Positions 3,221 through 18,228 of a stretch of 64,000 nt of DNA are shown piece after piece (the first letter of the stretch is position 1; each line of letters opens with the position of its first letter). The notes below the pieces were generated by a model, which saw only the letters and a list, made by a program, of their open reading frames with translations, did not search any database and was not told the DNA's origin. Source of the stretch: Escherichia coli (lineage in GTDB: Bacteria; Pseudomonadota; Gammaproteobacteria; Enterobacterales; Enterobacteriaceae); NCBI RefSeq assembly GCF_048403405.1, contig NZ_CP183129.1. One strand, written 5' to 3'. The position numbers were made by a program, and so were the translations under genes.

Positions 3221-4494
3221 AACCGATGCATATTGCAATGGCGCTGCTTTCTGCCGCGATGTTCTTTGTCCTCGCTGGCGTCTTTATGGGCGTGCAACTG
3301 GAGCTGGATGGCACCAAACTGGTGGTCGATAGCGCTTCGGATGTCCGTTGGCAGTGGGTGTTTATCGGCACGGCGGTGGTCTTTTTCTTCCAGCTTTTGC
3401 GACCGGCTTTCCAGAAAGGGTTGAAAAGCATTTCCGGACCGAAGTTTATTCTGCCAGCGATTGATGGCTCCACGGTGAAGCAAAAGCTGTTTCTCGTGGC
3501 GCTGCTGGTGCTTGCGGTGGCGTGGCCGTTTATGGTTTCACGTGGGACGGTGGATATCGCCACTCTGACCATGATCTACATTATTCTTGGTCTCGGGCTG
3601 AACGTGGTGGTAGGGCTTTCTGGTCTGCTGGTGCTCGGTTACGGCGGCTTTTACGCCATCGGCGCTTACACCTTTGCGCTGCTCAATCACTATTACGGTC
3701 TGGGGTTCTGGACCTGTCTGCCGATTGCCGGGTTAATGGCGGCGGCGGCGGGCTTCCTGCTCGGCTTTCCGGTGCTGCGTCTGCGCGGTGACTATCTGGC
3801 GATCGTTACCCTCGGTTTCGGCGAAATTGTGCGCATATTGCTGCTCAATAACACCGAAATCACCGGCGGCCCGAACGGGATCAGTCAGATCCCGAAACCG
3901 ACTTTTTTCGGCCTTGAGTTCAGCCGTACCGCTCGTGAAGGCGGCTGGGACACGTTCAGTAATTTCTTTGGCCTGAAATACGATCCCTCCGATCGTGTCA
4001 TCTTCCTCTACCTGGTGGCGTTGCTGCTGGTGGTGCTAAGCCTGTTTGTCATTAACCGCCTGCTGCGGATGCCGCTGGGGCGTGCGTGGGAAGCGTTACG
4101 TGAAGATGAAATCGCCTGCCGTTCGCTGGGCTTAAGCCCGCGTCGTATCAAGCTGACTGCCTTTACCATAAGTGCCGCGTTTGCCGGTTTTGCCGGAACG
4201 CTGTTTGCTGCGCGTCAGGGCTTTGTCAGCCCGGAATCCTTCACCTTTGCTGAATCAGCCTTTGTACTGGCGATAGTGGTGCTCGGCGGTATGGGCTCGC
4301 AATTTGCAGTGATTCTGGCGGCTGTTCTGCTGGTGGTATCGCGCGAGTTGATGCGTGATTTCAACGAATACAGCATGTTAATGCTCGGTGGTTTGATGGT
4401 GCTGATGATGATCTGGCGTCCGCAGGGCTTGCTGCCCATGACGCGCCCGCAACTGAAGCTGAAAAACGGCGCAGCGAAAGGAGAGCAGGCATGA
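3217..4494 (+). CDS. livM: Branched-chain amino acid ABC transporter permease LivM
   Basis: 425 aa membrane ORF overlapping the livH stop (ATGA) and the livG start. Confidence 0.93.
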
Positions 4495-5258
4495 GTCAGC
4501 CATTATTATCCGTTAACGGCCTGATGATGCGCTTCGGCGGCCTGCTGGCGGTGAACAACGTCAATCTCGAATTGTACCCGCAGGAGATCGTCTCGTTAAT
4601 CGGCCCTAACGGTGCCGGAAAAACCACGGTCTTCAACTGCCTGACCGGATTCTACAAACCCACCGGCGGTACCATTTTACTGCGCGATCAGCACCTGGAA
4701 GGTTTACCGGGGCAGCAAATCGCCCGCATGGGCGTGGTGCGCACCTTCCAGCATGTGCGTCTGTTCCGTGAAATGACGGTGATTGAAAACCTGCTGGTGG
4801 CGCAGCATCAGCAACTGAAAACCGGGCTGTTCTCTGGCCTGTTGAAAACGCCTTCTTTCCGTCGCGCCCAGAGCGAAGCGCTCGACCGCGCCGCTACCTG
4901 GCTTGAGCGCATTGGTTTGCTGGAACATGCCAACCGTCAGGCGAGTAACCTGGCCTATGGTGACCAGCGTCGTCTGGAGATTGCCCGCTGCATGGTGACG
5001 CAGCCGGAGATTTTAATGCTCGACGAACCTGCGGCAGGTCTTAACCCGAAAGAGACGAAAGAGCTGGATGAGCTGATTGCCGAACTGCGTAACCATCACA
5101 ACACCACTATCTTGTTGATTGAACACGATATGAAGCTGGTGATGGGGATTTCAGACAGAATTTACGTGGTCAATCAGGGGACGCCGCTGGCAAACGGTAC
5201 GCCGGAGCAGATCCGTAATAACCCGGACGTGATCCGTGCCTATTTAGGTGAGGCATAA
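4491..5258 (+). CDS. livG: Branched-chain amino acid ABC transporter ATP-binding protein LivG
   Basis: 255 aa; Walker [13 protein letters not shown] signature and Walker [11 protein letters not shown]. Confidence 0.93.
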
Positions 5259-11950: not shown

Positions 11951-13693
11951 ATGATAAAACCGACGTTTTTACGCCGGGTAGCCATTGCTGCTCTGCTCTC
12001 AGGAAGTTGTTTTAGCGCCGCCGCCGCGCCTCCTCCGCCACCTGTTTCTTATGGCGTGGAGGAAGATGTCTTCCATCCGGTACGCGCGAAACAGGGGATG
12101 GTGGCGTCTGTAGATGCTACTGCCACTCAGGTGGGCGTGGATATCCTCAAGGAGGGCGGGAATGCCGTTGATGCTGCCGTGGCGGTGGGCTACGCGCTGG
12201 CGGTAACGCATCCGCAGGCGGGGAATCTGGGCGGCGGTGGTTTTATGCTGATCCGCTCGAAAAATGGCAATACCACCGCTATCGATTTCCGCGAAATGGC
12301 ACCCGCCAAAGCGACCCGCGATATGTTCCTTGATGATCAGGGTAACCCGGACAGCAAAAAATCACTCACTTCGCATCTGGCCTCCGGTACGCCAGGTACG
12401 GTCGCAGGTTTCTCGCTGGCGCTGGAGAAGTACGGCACCATGCCGTTAAATAAAGTGGTGCAGCCGGCGTTTAAACTGGCACGCGATGGTTTTATCGTTA
12501 ATGACGCGCTGGCTGACGATCTCAAAACCTACGGTAGCGAAGTGTTGCCGAATCACGAAAACAGCAAGGCTATCTTCTGGAAAGAGGGCGCGCCGCTGAA
12601 AAAGGGCGACAAGCTGGTGCAGGCGAACCTGGCAAAGAGCCTGGAGATGATTGCCGAAAACGGCCCGGACGAATTCTACAAAGGCACGATAGCGGAACAG
12701 ATTGCCCAGGAGATGCAGAAAAACGGTGGCTTGATCACTAAAGAAGATTTAGCGGCGTATAAAGCGGTCGAACGTACACCGATTAGCGGCGATTATCGCG
12801 GGTATCAGGTTTACTCCATGCCACCGCCATCTTCCGGCGGGATCCATATCGTACAAATCCTCAATATTCTGGAAAACTTCGATATGAAGAAATACGGCTT
12901 TGGCAGCGCCGACGCGATGCAAATCATGGCAGAAGCTGAGAAATATGCCTACGCCGACCGCTCGGAATATCTTGGCGACCCGGATTTTGTCAAAGTTCCG
13001 TGGCAGGCGCTGACCAATAAAGCCTATGCCAAATCTATTGCCGATCAAATCGATATCAATAAAGCGAAGCCATCCAGCGAAATTCGCCCCGGCAAGCTTG
13101 CGCCTTATGAGAGTAATCAAACTACCCATTACTCAGTGGTGGATAAAGACGGCAACGCGGTAGCGGTGACCTATACGCTGAACACCACCTTCGGGACGGG
13201 CATTGTCGCGGGCGAGAGCGGTATTCTGCTTAATAACCAGATGGATGATTTCTCCGCCAAACCTGGCGTACCGAACGTTTACGGGCTGGTGGGTGGTGAC
13301 GCCAACGCGGTCGGGCCGAATAAACGCCCGCTGTCGTCGATGTCCCCAACCATTGTGGTGAAAGACGGTAAAACCTGGTTAGTGACTGGTAGCCCAGGCG
13401 GTAGCCGGATCATCACTACCGTGCTGCAAATGGTGGTGAACAGCATCGATTATGGTATGAATGTCGCCGAAGCGACCAATGCACCGCGTTTCCACCATCA
13501 GTGGTTGCCGGACGAGCTGCGTGTCGAGAAAGGATTTAGCCCGGATACGCTCAAGCTGCTGGAAGCAAAAGGTCAGAAAGTGGCGCTGAAAGAGGCGATG
13601 GGCAGTACACAAAGCATTATGGTTGGGCCGGACGGTGAGCTGTACGGTGCATCCGATCCGCGCTCGGTGGATGATTTAACGGCGGGGTATTAA
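11951..13693 (+). CDS. ggt: Gamma-glutamyltranspeptidase Ggt (580 aa)
   Basis: ORF 11924..13693; start taken at MIKPTFLRRVAIAALLSG (11951); catalytic TTHYSVVD segment present. Confidence 0.93.
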   Translation: MIKPTFLRRVAIAALLSGSCFSAAAAPPPPPVSYGVEEDVFHPVRAKQGMVASVDATATQVGVDILKEGGNAVDAAVAVGYALAVTHPQAGNLGGGGFMLIRSKNGNTTAIDFREMAPAKATRDMFLDDQGNPDSKKSLTSHLASGTPGTVAGFSLALEKYGTMPLNKVVQPAFKLARDGFIVNDALADDLKTYGSEVLPNHENSKAIFWKEGAPLKKGDKLVQANLAKSLEMIAENGPDEFYKGTIAEQIAQEMQKNGGLITKEDLAAYKAVERTPISGDYRGYQVYSMPPPSSGGIHIVQILNILENFDMKKYGFGSADAMQIMAEAEKYAYADRSEYLGDPDFVKVPWQALTNKAYAKSIADQIDINKAKPSSEIRPGKLAPYESNQTTHYSVVDKDGNAVAVTYTLNTTFGTGIVAGESGILLNNQMDDFSAKPGVPNVYGLVGGDANAVGPNKRPLSSMSPTIVVKDGKTWLVTGSPGGSRIITTVLQMVVNSIDYGMNVAEATNAPRFHHQWLPDELRVEKGFSPDTLKLLEAKGQKVALKEAMGSTQSIMVGPDGELYGASDPRSVDDLTAGY

Positions 13694-13698
13694 GGTTA

Positions 13699-13726
13699 GC
13701 GGCCCTCTTCGTGGGAAGAGGGCCGT
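13699..13726. terminator. Bidirectional terminator hairpin between convergent ggt and yrhB
   Basis: ggccctcttc-gtgg-gaagagggcc perfect hairpin. Confidence 0.5.
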
Positions 13727-13730
13727 ATTG

Positions 13731-14015
13731 TCAGGGCAAGCCGAAGGTAGCCTTTTTTATTTCATAATCCTGTAGATATTCTTCCAGCGGCTTTGCCGTT
13801 CCCAGAGAATGAATTTCACCACTATCTTTATCAATAATAAAAGGTGCGTTACCAGCTAAGCGCGCGGCCTCATCTCCAGATTCAAGAAATTCTTGTGATT
13901 CGAAACAGAAATACCAGCCCTGGCTAAAACGTCCATGCAGAGTGATGACGACAGGGAGATCTGCATCATCAAGGTAATGGTTCGCTTTCGCGAATGCGTC
14001 GTGATAAGTAATCAT
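13731..14015 (-). CDS. yrhB: YrhB (94 aa small protein)
   Basis: ORF track 94 aa MITYHDAFAKANHYLDDADLPVVITLHGRF...; matches recalled YrhB and its position beside ggt. Confidence 0.75.
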   Translation of the reverse strand: MITYHDAFAKANHYLDDADLPVVITLHGRFSQGWYFCFESQEFLESGDEAARLAGNAPFIIDKDSGEIHSLGTAKPLEEYLQDYEIKKATFGLP

Positions 14016-14464
14016 AATTATAATAAATATTATTGTTGATCGTTATATTATTATTCTTGCGTTATACTTTGAGAAAAGACGCGTTCATCTTCGTCAAAGA
14101 TATTATTAAATGCTGGTTTTGAAAAAAGTTCATCGGATAATATACAGTCACGAAATAAGTATCTGCTAATATTTTGTGATTTCTTTTTCAGAACGTCGAA
14201 CGGGATTTTCTTATTTAAGATATCAGAATCTTATGATTCGGGTGAAATTCTAACTAAATCAACATGTCACTAAAATCATCATAGCCATTAGCTATTTCGG
14301 CTAAAATAGAGATTACATGTCTTCGGTCCATCTCACTTAAGGAGTGTAGTTCCGTTGTAAGTTTTTCCATAGCTTGCATTGCTAAGTTTCGAACAAGGAA
14401 TTTTCTGCTGGTAATCTCTAAAAAGATGGCATGGTTTACAATGATTTTTGTTACCTTTTGATTA

Positions 14465-14959
14465 TTATGAACAACTGTCCATGATTTCGTTTAAGAATGA
14501 AGAGAAATCACTAAACGAACTGAATATATTTTCGGTGCCAATATTATCTCTAATTTCAAAAAAGTTACTTTTAATGTCATAAGTAAATATTGAAATGCTA
14601 TCATCCCCGATCACTAACCGTTCTTGTAGATCAGGGTTTATGAAATCATCATTATTTCTATAAAATTCATTTACGGCAAAAAGGTTTTTAACTGAAGGTT
14701 CTGGAATCGAGAGGCTAAATAATCGTAATCCATTAGCTTCGAATCCATCCATTGCTCTTAAAAAAGTAAGATAATCAGGTTGATTCTTAAAAAAAATACT
14801 AACTTCATTACATAACTTCTCCAGGCAATTAGTTGAATTAGAATTAAATTCTATTTGGATTATACTTTCAATAAATGATTCCTTAAGCGGTGCTTCAAAT
14901 GGATAGTCTAAATCATTCATCATTTTTTTTAATTTATTTATTTGGGTCTTAGTCATCAT
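14465..14959 (-). CDS. Putative immunity protein for the upstream Hcp-nuclease effector (164 aa; likely intact equivalent of K-12 yrhA)
   Basis: Start ATG overlaps the stop of the upstream toxin ORF by 4 nt (ATGA); acidic, AT-rich; no recognisable catalytic motif. Immunity role inferred from context. Confidence 0.6.
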   Translation of the reverse strand: MMTKTQINKLKKMMNDLDYPFEAPLKESFIESIIQIEFNSNSTNCLEKLCNEVSIFFKNQPDYLTFLRAMDGFEANGLRLFSLSIPEPSVKNLFAVNEFYRNNDDFINPDLQERLVIGDDSISIFTYDIKSNFFEIRDNIGTENIFSSFSDFSSFLNEIMDSCS

Positions 14960-16134
14960 TTTGTGGGTTCCATAATATTTTTCATGGGAGGATAAATTGA
15001 GCCAGATGGAATGGCCCAGTGAGTGATTTTGCTTTCACCTACTAATATTCCCTTAGCTATTCGTGATTGCATGTTAGTAAAAACTTTATGATATGGTTCG
15101 TTTTCGATTAATACTAAATTTTCGAAATCGTTAGCACCACCATCATCTAGAGATAGTTTATGGTGAACATTATAATTTAGAGGAACATTGCCCTTTCTCA
15201 TTCTTAAAAGGTCTTCGGCGTTGAATCTTTCAGATGCTTCGGAGGTTTTTGCAAGTTTGATAAGAAAATTTTTTCTTACAGTTTTATTAAACTCCTTTCG
15301 TAAGTTAGCTAAGTCTTTTGAAGGTCTCTTAATGTATATTATTTCTATTATGTCTATACCATCAAGAAGTTTTTGTTGACCTCTAAGTTTGCCTAAGTAA
15401 CTATTTATTTCTGTATATGTATCAACATTAGAACGCTTTGTTAAAAGAATAGATGCTGTTGCTATCGCTATGCCCGCTGTTTTTTCATTTAGTATTTGAT
15501 CATAGCCTTTTATTGCATCTCCACCCAGTTTTTCCGCAGTATCTCTGAATCCTTCAATGTTCCCATTGTATACGCCACCAGCAGCAAGTAGCCTGCCAAT
15601 AGCTTTGCTGTTTAACGCTTTTAAACCATTATTTGTTTGGTTTTTTGAATTTGGTAAAACCAAACGGTTATAATTTTCAGGGAGTGCCAAATAGCTGAAC
15701 TCGGTATTTGCGATAAGATGTTGACAGAGGATAAATTCATAACTAACAGTTATTGTTTCTGTATCCAGTTGATTTTGAATGATCTGATGATGAATAGCCG
15801 ATAAAAAAGCGCCTCTTAGTTGTATATAATAATACTTTTCCCATCTACCAAATCTATTGATTCTATAAAAGTCAAATTCCATAAATAATTGCTCATTATT
15901 GTTAATGGAATTAATAAGTAATGGAGTGCTTTTATCAATTAATTTACAAAATGTCATACCCTGTAACTGTGAACCAAGTCCCGTATTAGTAATTCTATTT
16001 GCGAGTGAGAATGTAAATATTTCATCCTCATGCCCACTCTGCCAGCGATTACCTATAGATTCAGTAGTCCCACAACCTGCGGAGATGTTTCCTTGTTGTT
16101 CTCCCGTTACTGTCAGGTAAACAATATTACTCAT
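14956..16134 (-). CDS. yhhZ: Hcp-domain protein fused to a C-terminal HNH-type nuclease toxin domain (T6SS Hcp-effector, 392 aa)
   Basis: N-terminus is Hcp-like (MSNIVYLTVTGEQQGN...KLIDKSTPLL); C-terminus has NYNVHHKLSLDDGGANDFENLVLIENEPYH (HNH/colicin-DNase-like His motif); AT-rich. Confidence 0.75.
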   Translation of the reverse strand: MSNIVYLTVTGEQQGNISAGCGTTESIGNRWQSGHEDEIFTFSLANRITNTGLGSQLQGMTFCKLIDKSTPLLINSINNNEQLFMEFDFYRINRFGRWEKYYYIQLRGAFLSAIHHQIIQNQLDTETITVSYEFILCQHLIANTEFSYLALPENYNRLVLPNSKNQTNNGLKALNSKAIGRLLAAGGVYNGNIEGFRDTAEKLGGDAIKGYDQILNEKTAGIAIATASILLTKRSNVDTYTEINSYLGKLRGQQKLLDGIDIIEIIYIKRPSKDLANLRKEFNKTVRKNFLIKLAKTSEASERFNAEDLLRMRKGNVPLNYNVHHKLSLDDGGANDFENLVLIENEPYHKVFTNMQSRIAKGILVGESKITHWAIPSGSIYPPMKNIMEPTK

Positions 16135-16369
16135 CCATGAAAAGTCCTTTTATGGCATGCTATTTTATCAATGGAACTATTATGCTTGTTAATTGTTATT
16201 TATTTACTCCAGGAAATTGTAGGCGTATATATTAAAAAATAAAATATTACACTTTAGGACGTAATCATGAGGTAAATCTTATATATTTATTGGGAAAATA
16301 AATACATTAAAGGAAGGTATGCCGATTTTGAATGACACCCTTTTTCCATCTCAGAAAAAGGGCACTATC

Positions 16370-16858
16370 TTACTTCACCCGCGCCATATAATACGCATCG
16401 ACATATTCACCATTACGTAATGCGTACTTCTTGCCAGTCCCTTCAATCTCAAATCCAAATTTTTTATAGACCTTAATTGCTGGCGCGTTATCGATGAACA
16501 CCGTTAGCTCAATACGATCTACCCGCAACCAGTTGTCGCACATTTCAATCATCTCTCGCATCAGGGCGCTGGCGACGCCGCGATTCTTCCAACGGGAGTC
16601 GACACAAATACCAAAATCTGCAACATGACTGCGGCGTGGGCGCTGTTGCACGTCAATGGTGAGATGGCCCACGACGTCTCCATCAATACAGGCGACGAGT
16701 TGCTTGATGCCGGGGCGATCGGCGAGTCGCTCCTGCCACATATGATCGGAGGGATGAGGCACCTGTAGCGTGTTGCAATACACCTCCGGCTGGGCGTGAA
16801 TCTGCCTGATGGCCTCGTAATCCCGTGTTTCTGCGTGGCGTATCACTATCTCACTCAT
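16370..16858 (-). CDS. yhhY: GNAT N-acetyltransferase YhhY (162 aa)
   Basis: ORF 16370..16936; start taken at MSEIVIRHAETRDYEAIRQIH (16858); GNAT motif RWKNRGVASALM. Confidence 0.85.
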   Translation of the reverse strand: MSEIVIRHAETRDYEAIRQIHAQPEVYCNTLQVPHPSDHMWQERLADRPGIKQLVACIDGDVVGHLTIDVQQRPRRSHVADFGICVDSRWKNRGVASALMREMIEMCDNWLRVDRIELTVFIDNAPAIKVYKKFGFEIEGTGKKYALRNGEYVDAYYMARVK

Positions 16859-16949
16859 TCCTTTGTCCTCTTTGGGGTAAATGTCCCTTTCAACATCATT
16901 GACTTTCAAATGCGAGTCAAATGCATTTTTTTGCAAAAAGTGTTGGACA

Positions 16950-16979
16950 AGTGCGAATGAGAATGATTATTATTGTCTC
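16950..16979 (+). promoter_or_regulatory. ryhB promoter with Fur box
   Basis: gcgaatgagaatgattattattgtc matches the Fur consensus GATAATGATAATCATTATC and lies immediately upstream of the RyhB 5' end. Confidence 0.75.
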
Positions 16980-17069
16980 GCGATCAGGAAGACCCTCGCG
17001 GAGAACCTGAAAGCACGACATTGCTCACATTGCTTCCAGTATTACTTAGCCAGCCGGGTGCTGGCTTTT
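16980..17069 (+). ncRNA. ryhB: RyhB small RNA (Fur-repressed, iron-sparing regulator)
   Basis: gcgatcaggaagaccctcgcggagaacctgaaagcacgacattgctcacattgcttccagtattacttagccagccgggtgctggctttt matches recalled RyhB; ends in a GC hairpin plus U-run; lies between yhhY and yhhX. Confidence 0.9.
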
Positions 17070-17190
17070 TTTTGATCTTTCGTTTTCAATTTATCCACGG
17101 GAAGTGCTTGTGTTCGTTATGCGCACTCCAGTAGGAACCACGTCCGCTTTGCGCTAAGGTGTAAATAATCACCTTAAAAAGGACGAAATC

Positions 17191-18228
17191 ATGGTCATCA
17201 ACTGCGCCTTTATTGGCTTCGGCAAAAGCACCACCCGTTACCATCTGCCGTATGTACTTAACCGCAAGGATAGCTGGCATGTCGCGCATATTTTTCGCCG
17301 CCATGCGAAGCCGGAAGAACAGGCCCCAATTTATTCCCATATCCATTTCACCAGCGATCTCGACGAAGTGCTAAACGATCCTGATGTTAAGCTGGTTGTT
17401 GTCTGCACCCACGCGGACAGCCATTTCGAATACGCGAAGCGCGCGCTGGAAGCCGGGAAAAATGTGCTGGTCGAAAAACCGTTCACCCCGACGCTTGCCC
17501 AGGCGAAGGAGCTGTTTGAGTTGGCGAAAAGCAAAGGGCTGACCGTCACGCCGTATCAGAATCGTCGCTTTGATTCCTGCTTCCTGACAGCGAAAAAAGC
17601 GATTGAAAGCGGCAAGTTGGGAGAGATTGTCGAAGTGGAAAGCCATTTTGACTATTACCGCCCGGTGGCAGAAACCAAACCTGGACTGCCGCAGGATGGC
17701 GCGTTTTATGGCCTTGGTGTGCATACGATGGACCAGATTATTTCTCTGTTCGGTCGCCCGGATCACGTCGCTTATGACATCCGCAGCCTGCGTAATAAAG
17801 CCAATCCTGACGACACCTTTGAAGCGCAGCTGTTTTATGGCGACCTGAAAGCCATCGTCAAAACCAGCCATCTGGTGAAAATCGATTATCCGAAATTTAT
17901 CGTTCACGGTAAGAAAGGTTCGTTTATTAAATACGGTATCGACCAGCAGGAAACCAGCCTCAAGGCTAATATTATGCCGGGCGAACCGGGATTCGCGGCG
18001 GATGATTCGGTCGGTGTGCTGGAGTATGTCAATGACGAGGGCGTGACGGTCAGAGAAGAGATGAAGCCAGAAATGGGCGATTATGGGCGCGTTTATGATG
18101 CGTTGTACCAAACCATCGCCAACGGTGCGCCAAATTACGTCAAGGAATCTGAAGTTCTTACCAATCTGGAAATCCTTGAACGAGGATTTGAGCAAGCCTC
18201 TCCCTCCACAGTGACTCTCGCGAAGTAA
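17191..18228 (+). CDS. yhhX: Gfo/Idh/MocA-family NAD(P)-dependent oxidoreductase YhhX
   Basis: 345 aa; N-terminal Rossmann motif INCAFIGFGKST. Confidence 0.88.
   Translation: MVINCAFIGFGKSTTRYHLPYVLNRKDSWHVAHIFRRHAKPEEQAPIYSHIHFTSDLDEVLNDPDVKLVVVCTHADSHFEYAKRALEAGKNVLVEKPFTPTLAQAKELFELAKSKGLTVTPYQNRRFDSCFLTAKKAIESGKLGEIVEVESHFDYYRPVAETKPGLPQDGAFYGLGVHTMDQIISLFGRPDHVAYDIRSLRNKANPDDTFEAQLFYGDLKAIVKTSHLVKIDYPKFIVHGKKGSFIKYGIDQQETSLKANIMPGEPGFAADDSVGVLEYVNDEGVTVREEMKPEMGDYGRVYDALYQTIANGAPNYVKESEVLTNLEILERGFEQASPSTVTLAK

Follow-up and report, generated by a model that had tools for sequence, protein, structure and literature searches.

Probable remnants of two immunity-type genes between yrhA and yrhB in the yhhZ array of Escherichia coli

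The AT-rich DNA separating yrhA from yrhB in Escherichia coli is, with a probability that we put at roughly 87%, non-functional, decaying coding DNA, in which two pseudogene remnants (R1, proximal to yrhA, and R2, proximal to yrhB) lie head-to-tail among the orphan immunity-type genes arrayed behind yhhZ/yrhA. The tract covers positions 14016-14464 of the 64,000-nucleotide stretch analysed here (the window), and had been described in the initial annotation as eroded remnants of orphan immunity or effector genes. The immunity-type part of this description is supported by profile matches to two families, by lost start codons and in-frame stops, and by the near-neutral evolution of R1; the effector part is not, as no similarity to toxin domains was detected. 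Both R1 and R2 match intact genes, contrary to the outcome that would have refuted this description, namely that the tract would resemble no coding sequence in related genomes.

Results

The tract and its surroundings

The gene order in this segment of the E. coli chromosome is ugpC-ugpQ-yhhA-ggt-yrhB-tract-yrhA-yhhZ-yhhY-RyhB-yhhX, the tract being bounded by the start of yrhB and the stop of yrhA (Table 1). The block running from yrhB to yhhZ (13731-16134) is encoded wholly on the minus strand and forms an AT-rich island, with 29-38% G+C against 50-60% in the flanks. The tract itself has an overall G+C content of 32% (local range 0.29-0.33; flanking core genes 0.50-0.60), in agreement with the AT-richness originally reported. 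Also as reported, no listed ORF reaches 60 aa on either strand, and the only ORFs touching the tract are 41, 44 and 34 aa long. At this base composition, 450 bp without an ORF is unremarkable by itself. The open frames of the tract are, by themselves, weak evidence as well: in the window, the longest run without a stop spans 78 codons, a length attained by 7% of shuffled sequences, and in K-12-type alleles it spans 91 codons, attained by 2%. The significance of the tract derives from homology and not from ORF statistics.

Neither the DNA of the tract nor its translated frames display significant similarity to YhhZ, YrhA, YrhB, YhhY or the rest of the window, and the tract is therefore not an internal duplicate. 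Rfam covariance models searched over positions 13000-17500 revealed no family matching the tract, and the sole credible match was the gene for the RyhB sRNA (17009-17073, plus strand; RF00057, 83 bits, E 2.5e-15), whose location between yhhY and yhhX confirms a K-12-like neighbourhood. A sub-threshold match to the plant snoRNA snoR69Y within yrhA (14569-14665, minus strand; 28.7 bits, where the gathering score is 45) is almost certainly an artefact of the AT-rich composition.

Table 1. Features of the tract and its neighbours, related features at other loci, and tract haplogroups. Positions refer to the window unless a locus (L number) is given.
Feature	Position	Strand	Evidence or context
yrhB, intact orphan immunity gene	13731-14015	minus	Pfam Imm35, 1e-22
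Spacer from R2 stop to yrhB start, 35 nt	14016-14050	minus	right-hand cassette junction at 14019
R2, pseudogene remnant	14051-14215	minus	tblastn, Citrobacter HMM, synteny
R1, pseudogene remnant	14215-14472	minus	tblastn, family HMM, pN/pS
Truncated yrhD allele	14254-14370	minus	alignment to K-12-type loci; PGAP pseudogene call
yrhA, intact immunity-type gene	14465-14959	minus	NCBIfam NF038335, 4.5e-37 (YrhA/YPO0640 family)
yhhZ (PGAP gene name tssD)	14956-16134	minus	Pfam T6SS_HCP, weak HNH match, TIGR03344
Sigma-70-like match TTCTCA-17-AATAAT	14047-14075	minus	consensus scan; within R2, ~30 nt upstream of yrhB
Sigma-70-like match TAGAGA-18-TATATT	14523-14552	minus	scan; within yrhA 3' end, upstream of R1/yrhD
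ORF touching the tract	14254-14379	minus	41 aa
ORF touching the tract	14448-14582	plus	44 aa
ORF touching the tract	13935-14039	plus	34 aa
Peptide ...MFDELGIKNIxVKVVK	L029 4649-4999; L028 ~4940-5000; L032 ~3900-4000; L027 ~4960-4985		upstream of ~80-aa gene
81-87-aa gene (MITETELNVLK...)	L012 5302-5553; L016 4807-5070; L025 4600-4851; L019 2581-2826		adjoins ggt
Haplogroup, K-12 type	L002, L003		51-aa yrhD ORF intact; R2 with additional in-frame stop (KKKS*); 2,753 genomes (TAT)
Haplogroup, window type	window, L005, L008		Y39* (TAG) in yrhD; R2 open; 357 genomes
Haplogroup, 92% type (including Nissle 1917, ATCC 11775)	L006, L007		L22* (TTA to TAA) in yrhD; R2 open; 458 genomes (TAA)

The 38-codon ORF is an allele of yrhD

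The short minus-strand ORF singled out in the initial annotation indeed encodes MEKLTTELHSLSEMDRRHVISILAEIANGYDDFSDMLI, which is the exact translation of 14370-14257, and ends at a TAG stop (14256-14254). Its Shine-Dalgarno sequence had been judged poor, and nothing AGGAG-like or otherwise convincing is found 5' of its ATG. Its description as cryptic, and the alternative that it might be an unannotated small protein, have to be abandoned, since it is a truncated allele, bearing a PGAP pseudogene flag, of the annotated gene yrhD of K-12 (b4612, Swiss-Prot P58037). In K-12 MG1655, the syntenic ORF (3584404-3584559) encodes a 51-aa 'uncharacterized protein YrhD'. Strand, reading frame and location between yrhA and yrhB are the same in the window, and 36 of the 38 aligned residues are identical to those of K-12. 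Codon 39, TAT in K-12, is TAG in the window (Y39*), which therefore lacks the complete 51-codon ORF; apart from this stop, the two alleles differ by two missense changes. The corresponding gene of NZ_CP103479 (strain 4621), which is 100% identical to the window over 1.3 kb, is listed by PGAP as 'protein YrhD, incomplete, missing C-terminus' and flagged pseudo.

No homologue of the 51-aa YrhD was found outside E. coli, either in a word-indexed search or with phmmer against 1.84 billion proteins, and a literature search on b4612 returned nothing relevant. Three 'longer YrhD' database proteins (P0002, P0004 and P0009) were considered as carriers of the ancestral start and rejected, since one stems from a TTT to TTG mutation, another from an unrelated junction upstream, and the third from a fusion to yrhA by frameshift.

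R1 is related to a family of ~80-aa array proteins

R1 consists of the yrhD frame and 34 unannotated upstream codons, the frame being open from the yrhD ATG back to the end of yrhA. At the position where its relatives have an ATG, GTG or TTG start, R1 reads GTT (14472-14470), with an 8-nt overlap with the yrhA stop, and the stop corresponding to the family length lies at 14217-14215 (TAA in K-12). In the window, the 86-codon frame counted from this GTT is interrupted at codon 73, that is, at yrhD codon 39. When compared by tblastn, the extended frame (VVHNNQKETKIIVNHAIFLEITSRKFLVRNLAVQAMEKLTTELHSLSEMDRRHVVSILAEIANGY...) is 39% identical over 56 aa to the product of an 82-aa gene located in a CdiA array of Leclercia (E 2e-8, computed over the compared loci only). 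Full-length relatives of the Leclercia protein, with 45-54% identity, are encoded on megaplasmids of Pantoea, Rahnella and Ralstonia, and records from Streptomyces, Rhizobium and Deinococcus are also among the tblastn matches listed. The E. coli extended frame alone, searched against 7.3 Gb of plasmid sequence, again retrieved the genes just mentioned from Rahnella (E 6e-5) and Pantoea (E 9e-3).

Members of this family include those of Leclercia (L020 6633-6881), Pantoea dispersa (WP_141495966, WP_104187489), Rahnella (UJD92436) and Ralstonia (QKM40946, AXV75352). A profile HMM built from six intact members only (alignment A3) scored 46-50 bits against the extended frame of all three E. coli haplotypes. 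When the 1,855 stop-free segments from all six frames of the window were scored, the tract was the sole match (46.8 bits, E 3e-13), the next best segment reaching 5.5 bits, and the alignment covers model positions 3-67. Scored separately, the annotated YrhD reaches 17-20 bits and the unannotated part upstream of the yrhD ATG 17.5 bits. The annotated yrhD Met aligns to model position 35, which is internal and conserved in the family. The analysis indicates that the K-12 yrhD entry is itself a fragment of a longer decayed gene and no stand-alone gene, the database yrhD running from a Met that is internal to the family domain, and conserved in it, as far as the stop.

R1 shares with the ~80-aa family the motifs K-I-I-x-x-x-A-I-F-L-E, A-V-x-x-M-E, E-L-x-x-L and A-E-I-A-x-x-Y, and is of similar total length (86 against 80-84 codons). 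Unlike the family, it possesses neither a start codon nor a Shine-Dalgarno sequence, its 20 C-terminal residues have diverged, and premature stops are present in two haplogroups. The intact members start with ATG, GTG or TTG behind an AGAGG/GGGTGG Shine-Dalgarno sequence, and the E. coli copies have neither; what marks the intact genes of the family (start, Shine-Dalgarno and uninterrupted frame) is thus missing from R1. Pfam and NCBIfam scans of YrhD, of the fused R1+R2 peptide and of the Leclercia 82-aa protein returned no family. An AlphaFold model of the ~80-aa family is a four-helix bundle (pLDDT 79.5), a generic helical fold for which a PDB search yielded no specific structural or sequence match.

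R1 is located directly after yrhA in the yhhZ array. Its relatives follow CdiA/immunity pairs, a deaminase toxin with DUF6911, or Imm30, and precede Imm63; their array neighbours comprise CdiA, VENN, deaminase toxin with DUF6911, Imm63, Imm30, Imm70 and colicin immunity. In Ralstonia, Rahnella and Pantoea, a peptide of the form ...(W/R)EV(P/T)T.Q....A.KMFDELGIKNIxVKVVK either terminates shortly before the ~80-aa gene begins or overlaps with its start, and the upstream ORF with this ending is often broken by stops. The peptide may form the C-terminal end of a so far undescribed toxin domain. Gene position suggests that the ancestor of R1 was an immunity gene, and for the relatives of R1 this suggestion is strengthened by the conserved peptide and by the Imm63, Imm30, Imm70, DUF6911 and colicin immunity neighbours.

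R2 corresponds to the N-terminal part of a Citrobacter gene

The second remnant occupies the next frame, where 14212-14054 reads KKIPFDVLKKKSQNISRYLFRDCILSDELFSKPAFNNIFDEDERVFSQSITQE. It corresponds to the N-terminal 54 codons of an 85/86-aa gene of Citrobacter, the last 31 codons being gone. AAT (14215-14213) stands in place of the ATG and overlaps the R1 stop by one base in a TAAAT arrangement, and the frame closes at a stop at 14053-14051. Residues 2-54 of the Citrobacter protein are aligned by tblastn without gaps, at 45-47% identity over 53 aa (E 1e-12 to 4e-12), and an HMM of the Citrobacter protein has R2 as its sole match in the window (43.4 bits, E 3e-12). A full-length ORF with a start codon is not present.

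In C. youngae, the intact 85/86-aa gene lies 20 nt after yrhA. In Citrobacter sp. FP75, an Hcp gene has a C-terminal domain of a third, unrelated type; the 86-aa gene begins 2 nt behind it, and next comes a homologue of yrhB, an order that reproduces the adjacency of R2 and yrhB in E. coli. Searching one genome per species across ~100,000 species, we recovered the gene from no species other than these two of Citrobacter, apart from one contig resembling E. coli. The Citrobacter 85-aa protein matches no Pfam or NCBIfam family, and its structure model (pLDDT 49) is too poor for use. From its position, the ancestor of R2 would likewise have been an immunity gene, the Citrobacter protein putatively countering the third Hcp toxin domain. 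The Hcp gene of FP75 (L025 2746-3999) is split into ORFs of 81 and 335 aa and may itself be a pseudogene; its third C-terminal domain has no Pfam match. Citrobacter loci end beside ggt, whichever toxin cassette they carry, in a conserved gene of 81-87 aa (MITETELNVLK...) that E. coli lacks and that belongs to no Pfam family.

The fused R1+R2 peptide, searched with phmmer against 1.84 billion representatives, retrieved only E. coli fragments, and the word-indexed search gave the same result. The similarities described above (42-48 bits) are too weak for a search space of this size, which accounts for the lack of distant relatives in the large databases; R1/R2 homology emerges only when the search is small and defined by context, or when a family profile is used, the search of 7.3 Gb of plasmids reaching E 6e-5.

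A cassette-swapping Hcp-toxin locus

YhhZ is an Hcp protein fused to an HNH/colicin-DNase-like C-terminal toxin (Hcp-ET1 type). In Leclercia, YrhA occurs together with the same HNH toxin domain on a non-Hcp N-terminal carrier, and this co-travel supports a cognate pair; the pairing of the YhhZ HNH domain with YrhA also fits the published Hcp-ET1/immunity pair (PMC6730261). The yhhY-ggt slot of E. fergusonii and C. portucalensis is likewise occupied by an Hcp fusion, in this case with Gln_amidase (PF15644), and a YrhB/Imm35 homologue follows directly; in Pectobacterium a CdiA-Gln_amidase toxin is followed by Imm35. Since YrhB/Imm35 homologues directly follow Gln_amidase toxins, YrhB is the immunity partner of such toxins. 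Gln_amidase, the cognate toxin type of yrhB, is absent from the locus in the window, and yrhB (Imm35) is in E. coli an orphan immunity gene.

Comparison with E. fergusonii delimits the exchanged segment. From upstream of the gene to Hcp codon 219 (16198-15478), the two species are 95.7% identical; the breakpoint within yhhZ at codon 219 (15478/15477) is sharp, with no E. fergusonii homology beyond it. Similarity resumes 4 nt before the yrhB ATG (window 14019-13600 against E. fergusonii L010 1645-2065, 87% by blastn). Between these points, E. coli has 1,458 bp (15477-14020, comprising the HNH domain, yrhA, R1 and R2) in place of 489 bp in E. fergusonii. As read from these alignments, the locus is a cassette-swapping Hcp-toxin array.

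The literature presents YrhB as a chaperone-like small protein. The end of yrhB, CCC TGA (13731-13736, minus strand), is a context listed for elevated +1 ribosomal frameshifting, and yrhB is named there (PMC2790909). A G+C-rich inverted repeat (cggccctcttc / gaagagggccg) at 13700-13725, between the convergent ggt and yrhB, is likely a bidirectional terminator; the terminator scan made no call there because the repeat is not followed by a T-run.

Promoter-like sites were no more numerous in the scan than in shuffled sequences. The TAGAGA-18-TATATT hexamers in the 3' end of yrhA belong to a constitutive RpoD promoter with H-NS binding that genomic SELEX in K-12 assigned to yrhD (PMC3946193), and a sigma-S holoenzyme genomic-SELEX peak has been placed between yrhD and yrhB in K-12 (PMC5493296). 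Given the in-vitro sigma-70 site (PMC3946193), the region around yrhD may be transcribed. The weak match at 14047-14075 is a plausible candidate for the yrhB promoter, which DNA of R2 would now be supplying; the remnants would by now serve only as spacer and promoter for yrhB.

Alleles and selection across E. coli

The tract is present in 3,808 of 5,426 complete E. coli genomes and absent from about 1,600. It falls into three haplogroups, ~100%, 96% and 92% identical to the window, whose lesions and genome counts (exact 33-mers over the 5,426 complete genomes) are listed in Table 1. Both R1 and R2 are without start codons in all three. Independent nonsense alleles of yrhD account for at least 815 of the ~3,800 genomes, and in one sampled genome of the 92% type (L007) the yrhD ATG has become ATA. 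A different disabling lesion in each haplogroup is the signature of a decaying sequence.

Pairwise pN/pS ratios (Nei-Gojobori) were calculated among the three haplogroups from few substitutions, 7-19 per comparison. They amount to 0.09-0.28 for yrhB and 0.13-0.23 for yrhA, both of which show purifying selection, and to 0.76-1.27 for R1, which looks to be evolving near-neutrally. The annotated yrhD yields at least 1.5. For R2, the range is 0.18-0.78, the value of 0.18 coming from the pair of window-type and K-12-type sequences, so that R2 is not clearly neutral. At the nucleotide level, the tract has diverged by up to 7-8% against 1-3% in yrhA, that is, 2-3 times as much. The direction of the pN/pS ratios agrees with the lesions, even though the substitution counts are small.

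The C-terminal part of yhhZ (14959-15660, minus strand) has pN/pS ratios of 0.5-2.5 between haplogroups against 0.13-0.23 in yrhA; selection on the toxin may be relaxed or diversifying, with the immunity gene being kept. In K-12 (L002/L004), an IS1E element is inserted within yrhA, which is intact in the window. Strain PKF8 (L009) has lost yhhZ, yrhA and the tract, and has an IS1 in the interval from yrhB to yhhY.

Discussion

Three other explanations of the tract were weighed against decay of two immunity-type genes. The one with most in its favour takes yrhD for a genuine 51-aa small-protein gene, of which the window would carry a null or shortened allele, the remainder of the tract being 3' UTR and yrhB promoter. 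The gene is annotated in K-12 and named by PGAP in thousands of genomes, its 51-aa ORF is intact in ~2,750 of the 5,426 genomes, identical copies have been noted in 68 genomes (PMC3575317), and a SELEX sigma-70 promoter has been assigned to it (PMC3946193). However, its Met is internal to a longer family domain whose homology runs at least 30 codons further upstream, no Shine-Dalgarno sequence precedes the frame, nonsense alleles have arisen twice independently and are present in 357 and 458 genomes, its pN/pS is at least 1.5, and no 51-aa homologue was found outside E. coli; on these grounds we consider a functional stand-alone YrhD small protein unlikely.

The view that the tract has never been coding, and is spacer or promoter DNA harbouring a short ORF by chance, would be compatible with its AT-richness, with promoter-like sites no commoner than in shuffles, with in-vitro RNA polymerase binding on both sides of yrhD (PMC3946193, PMC5493296) and with a 78-codon stop-free run that 7% of shuffles match. 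It is rendered very improbable by two independent protein homologies to intact genes, each unique in the window (E ~1e-12 to 1e-13), by the reciprocal match in the 7.3-Gb database, and by the collinearity of the remnants, which follow one another in the order of the intact genes in Citrobacter arrays. Least credible of all is descent from a toxin C-terminal domain that was displaced (the 3' end of Gln_amidase, for instance), instead of from immunity-type genes: such a fragment would be expected next to yrhB, because yrhB comes straight after Gln_amidase in E. fergusonii, Citrobacter and Pectobacterium, but tblastn of the Hcp-Gln_amidase proteins, of the FP75 third domain and of YhhZ against the tract gave nothing below E ~1, the similarity to E. 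fergusonii begins again no more than 4 nt ahead of the yrhB ATG, and R1 and R2 together account for the whole tract.

Under decay of two immunity-type genes, the order of events that we infer is as follows. The array would have been built by repeated replacement of a toxin C-terminal domain together with its immunity gene. In the course of this process, the segment 15477-14020, bringing the HNH domain, yrhA, R1 and R2, would have taken the place of a Gln_amidase domain such as the one within the 489 bp of E. fergusonii, and loss of the Gln_amidase would have left yrhB as an orphan Imm35 gene. R1 would descend from an ~80-aa array gene that lost its start codon, the window copy having been further cut by Y39*. 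R2 would descend from the 85/86-aa gene, found in Citrobacter after yrhA or after a different Hcp toxin, through loss of the start and of the last 31 codons. The tract would thus represent the tail of the array, containing fossils of earlier or co-transferred immunity-type genes.

A caveat to decay is that ~2,750 genomes, including K-12, keep the whole 86-codon R1 frame open. This open frame, and the identical yrhD of many strains, could reflect recent common descent or residual function. It is conceivable, if rather doubtful, that the ~80-aa family constitutes a new immunity family for an unrecognised toxin domain ending in ...MFDELGIKNIxVKVVK and that K-12-type R1 may still be translated, with a protective or regulatory role. 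Such translation, if any, would proceed from a non-AUG start, for which the ATC/ATT pair 7 nt after AAGGA in K-12-type alleles is a candidate, or would yield the 51-aa C-terminal fragment.

Orphan toxin/immunity modules occur downstream of cdiA, rhs and T6SS effector genes in polymorphic toxin systems. They are said to have been described by Zhang et al. in Biol Direct in 2012 and by Poole et al. in PLoS Genet in 2011. The yhhZ locus resembles these modules in its conserved N-terminal part with a swapped C-terminal domain, and in the cognate immunity gene directly downstream, which is followed by toxin-less immunity-type genes, some of them decayed. It differs in that the displaced modules have left no recognisable toxin fragments, that two of the three trailing genes are dead in the E. 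coli locus, and that the carrier is an Hcp fusion whose chromosomal slot (yhhY-ggt) is fixed and whose host strains may have no T6SS to match. A closer parallel is Hcp-ET1/ETI1, in which an Hcp with an HNH-DNase extension is paired with an immunity protein (Ma et al. 2017, summarised in PMC6730261). As in that pair, the Hcp moiety of YhhZ is joined to an HNH/colicin-DNase-like C-terminus and followed by a small immunity-type gene, yrhA; the present finding concerns the DNA after the immunity gene, on which PMC6730261 is silent.

The tract is a case of ordinary, well-resolved gene decay, and represents neither a new small protein nor a new kind of biology. Its value lies in annotation: the long-standing 'uncharacterized protein' YrhD of K-12 is explained as a fragment of a decayed array gene, and a second, unannotated pseudogene (R2) is identified beside it. 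The same comparison recasts yrhB as an orphan Imm35 immunity gene, its Gln_amidase partner toxin being still encoded at this slot in E. fergusonii and Citrobacter, and draws attention to an ~80-aa family that is widespread in toxin-immunity arrays and is without a Pfam or NCBIfam model. The yhhY-ggt slot offers a natural example of the stepwise replacement of toxin/immunity cassettes on an Hcp carrier, in which earlier cassettes are still readable as fossils.
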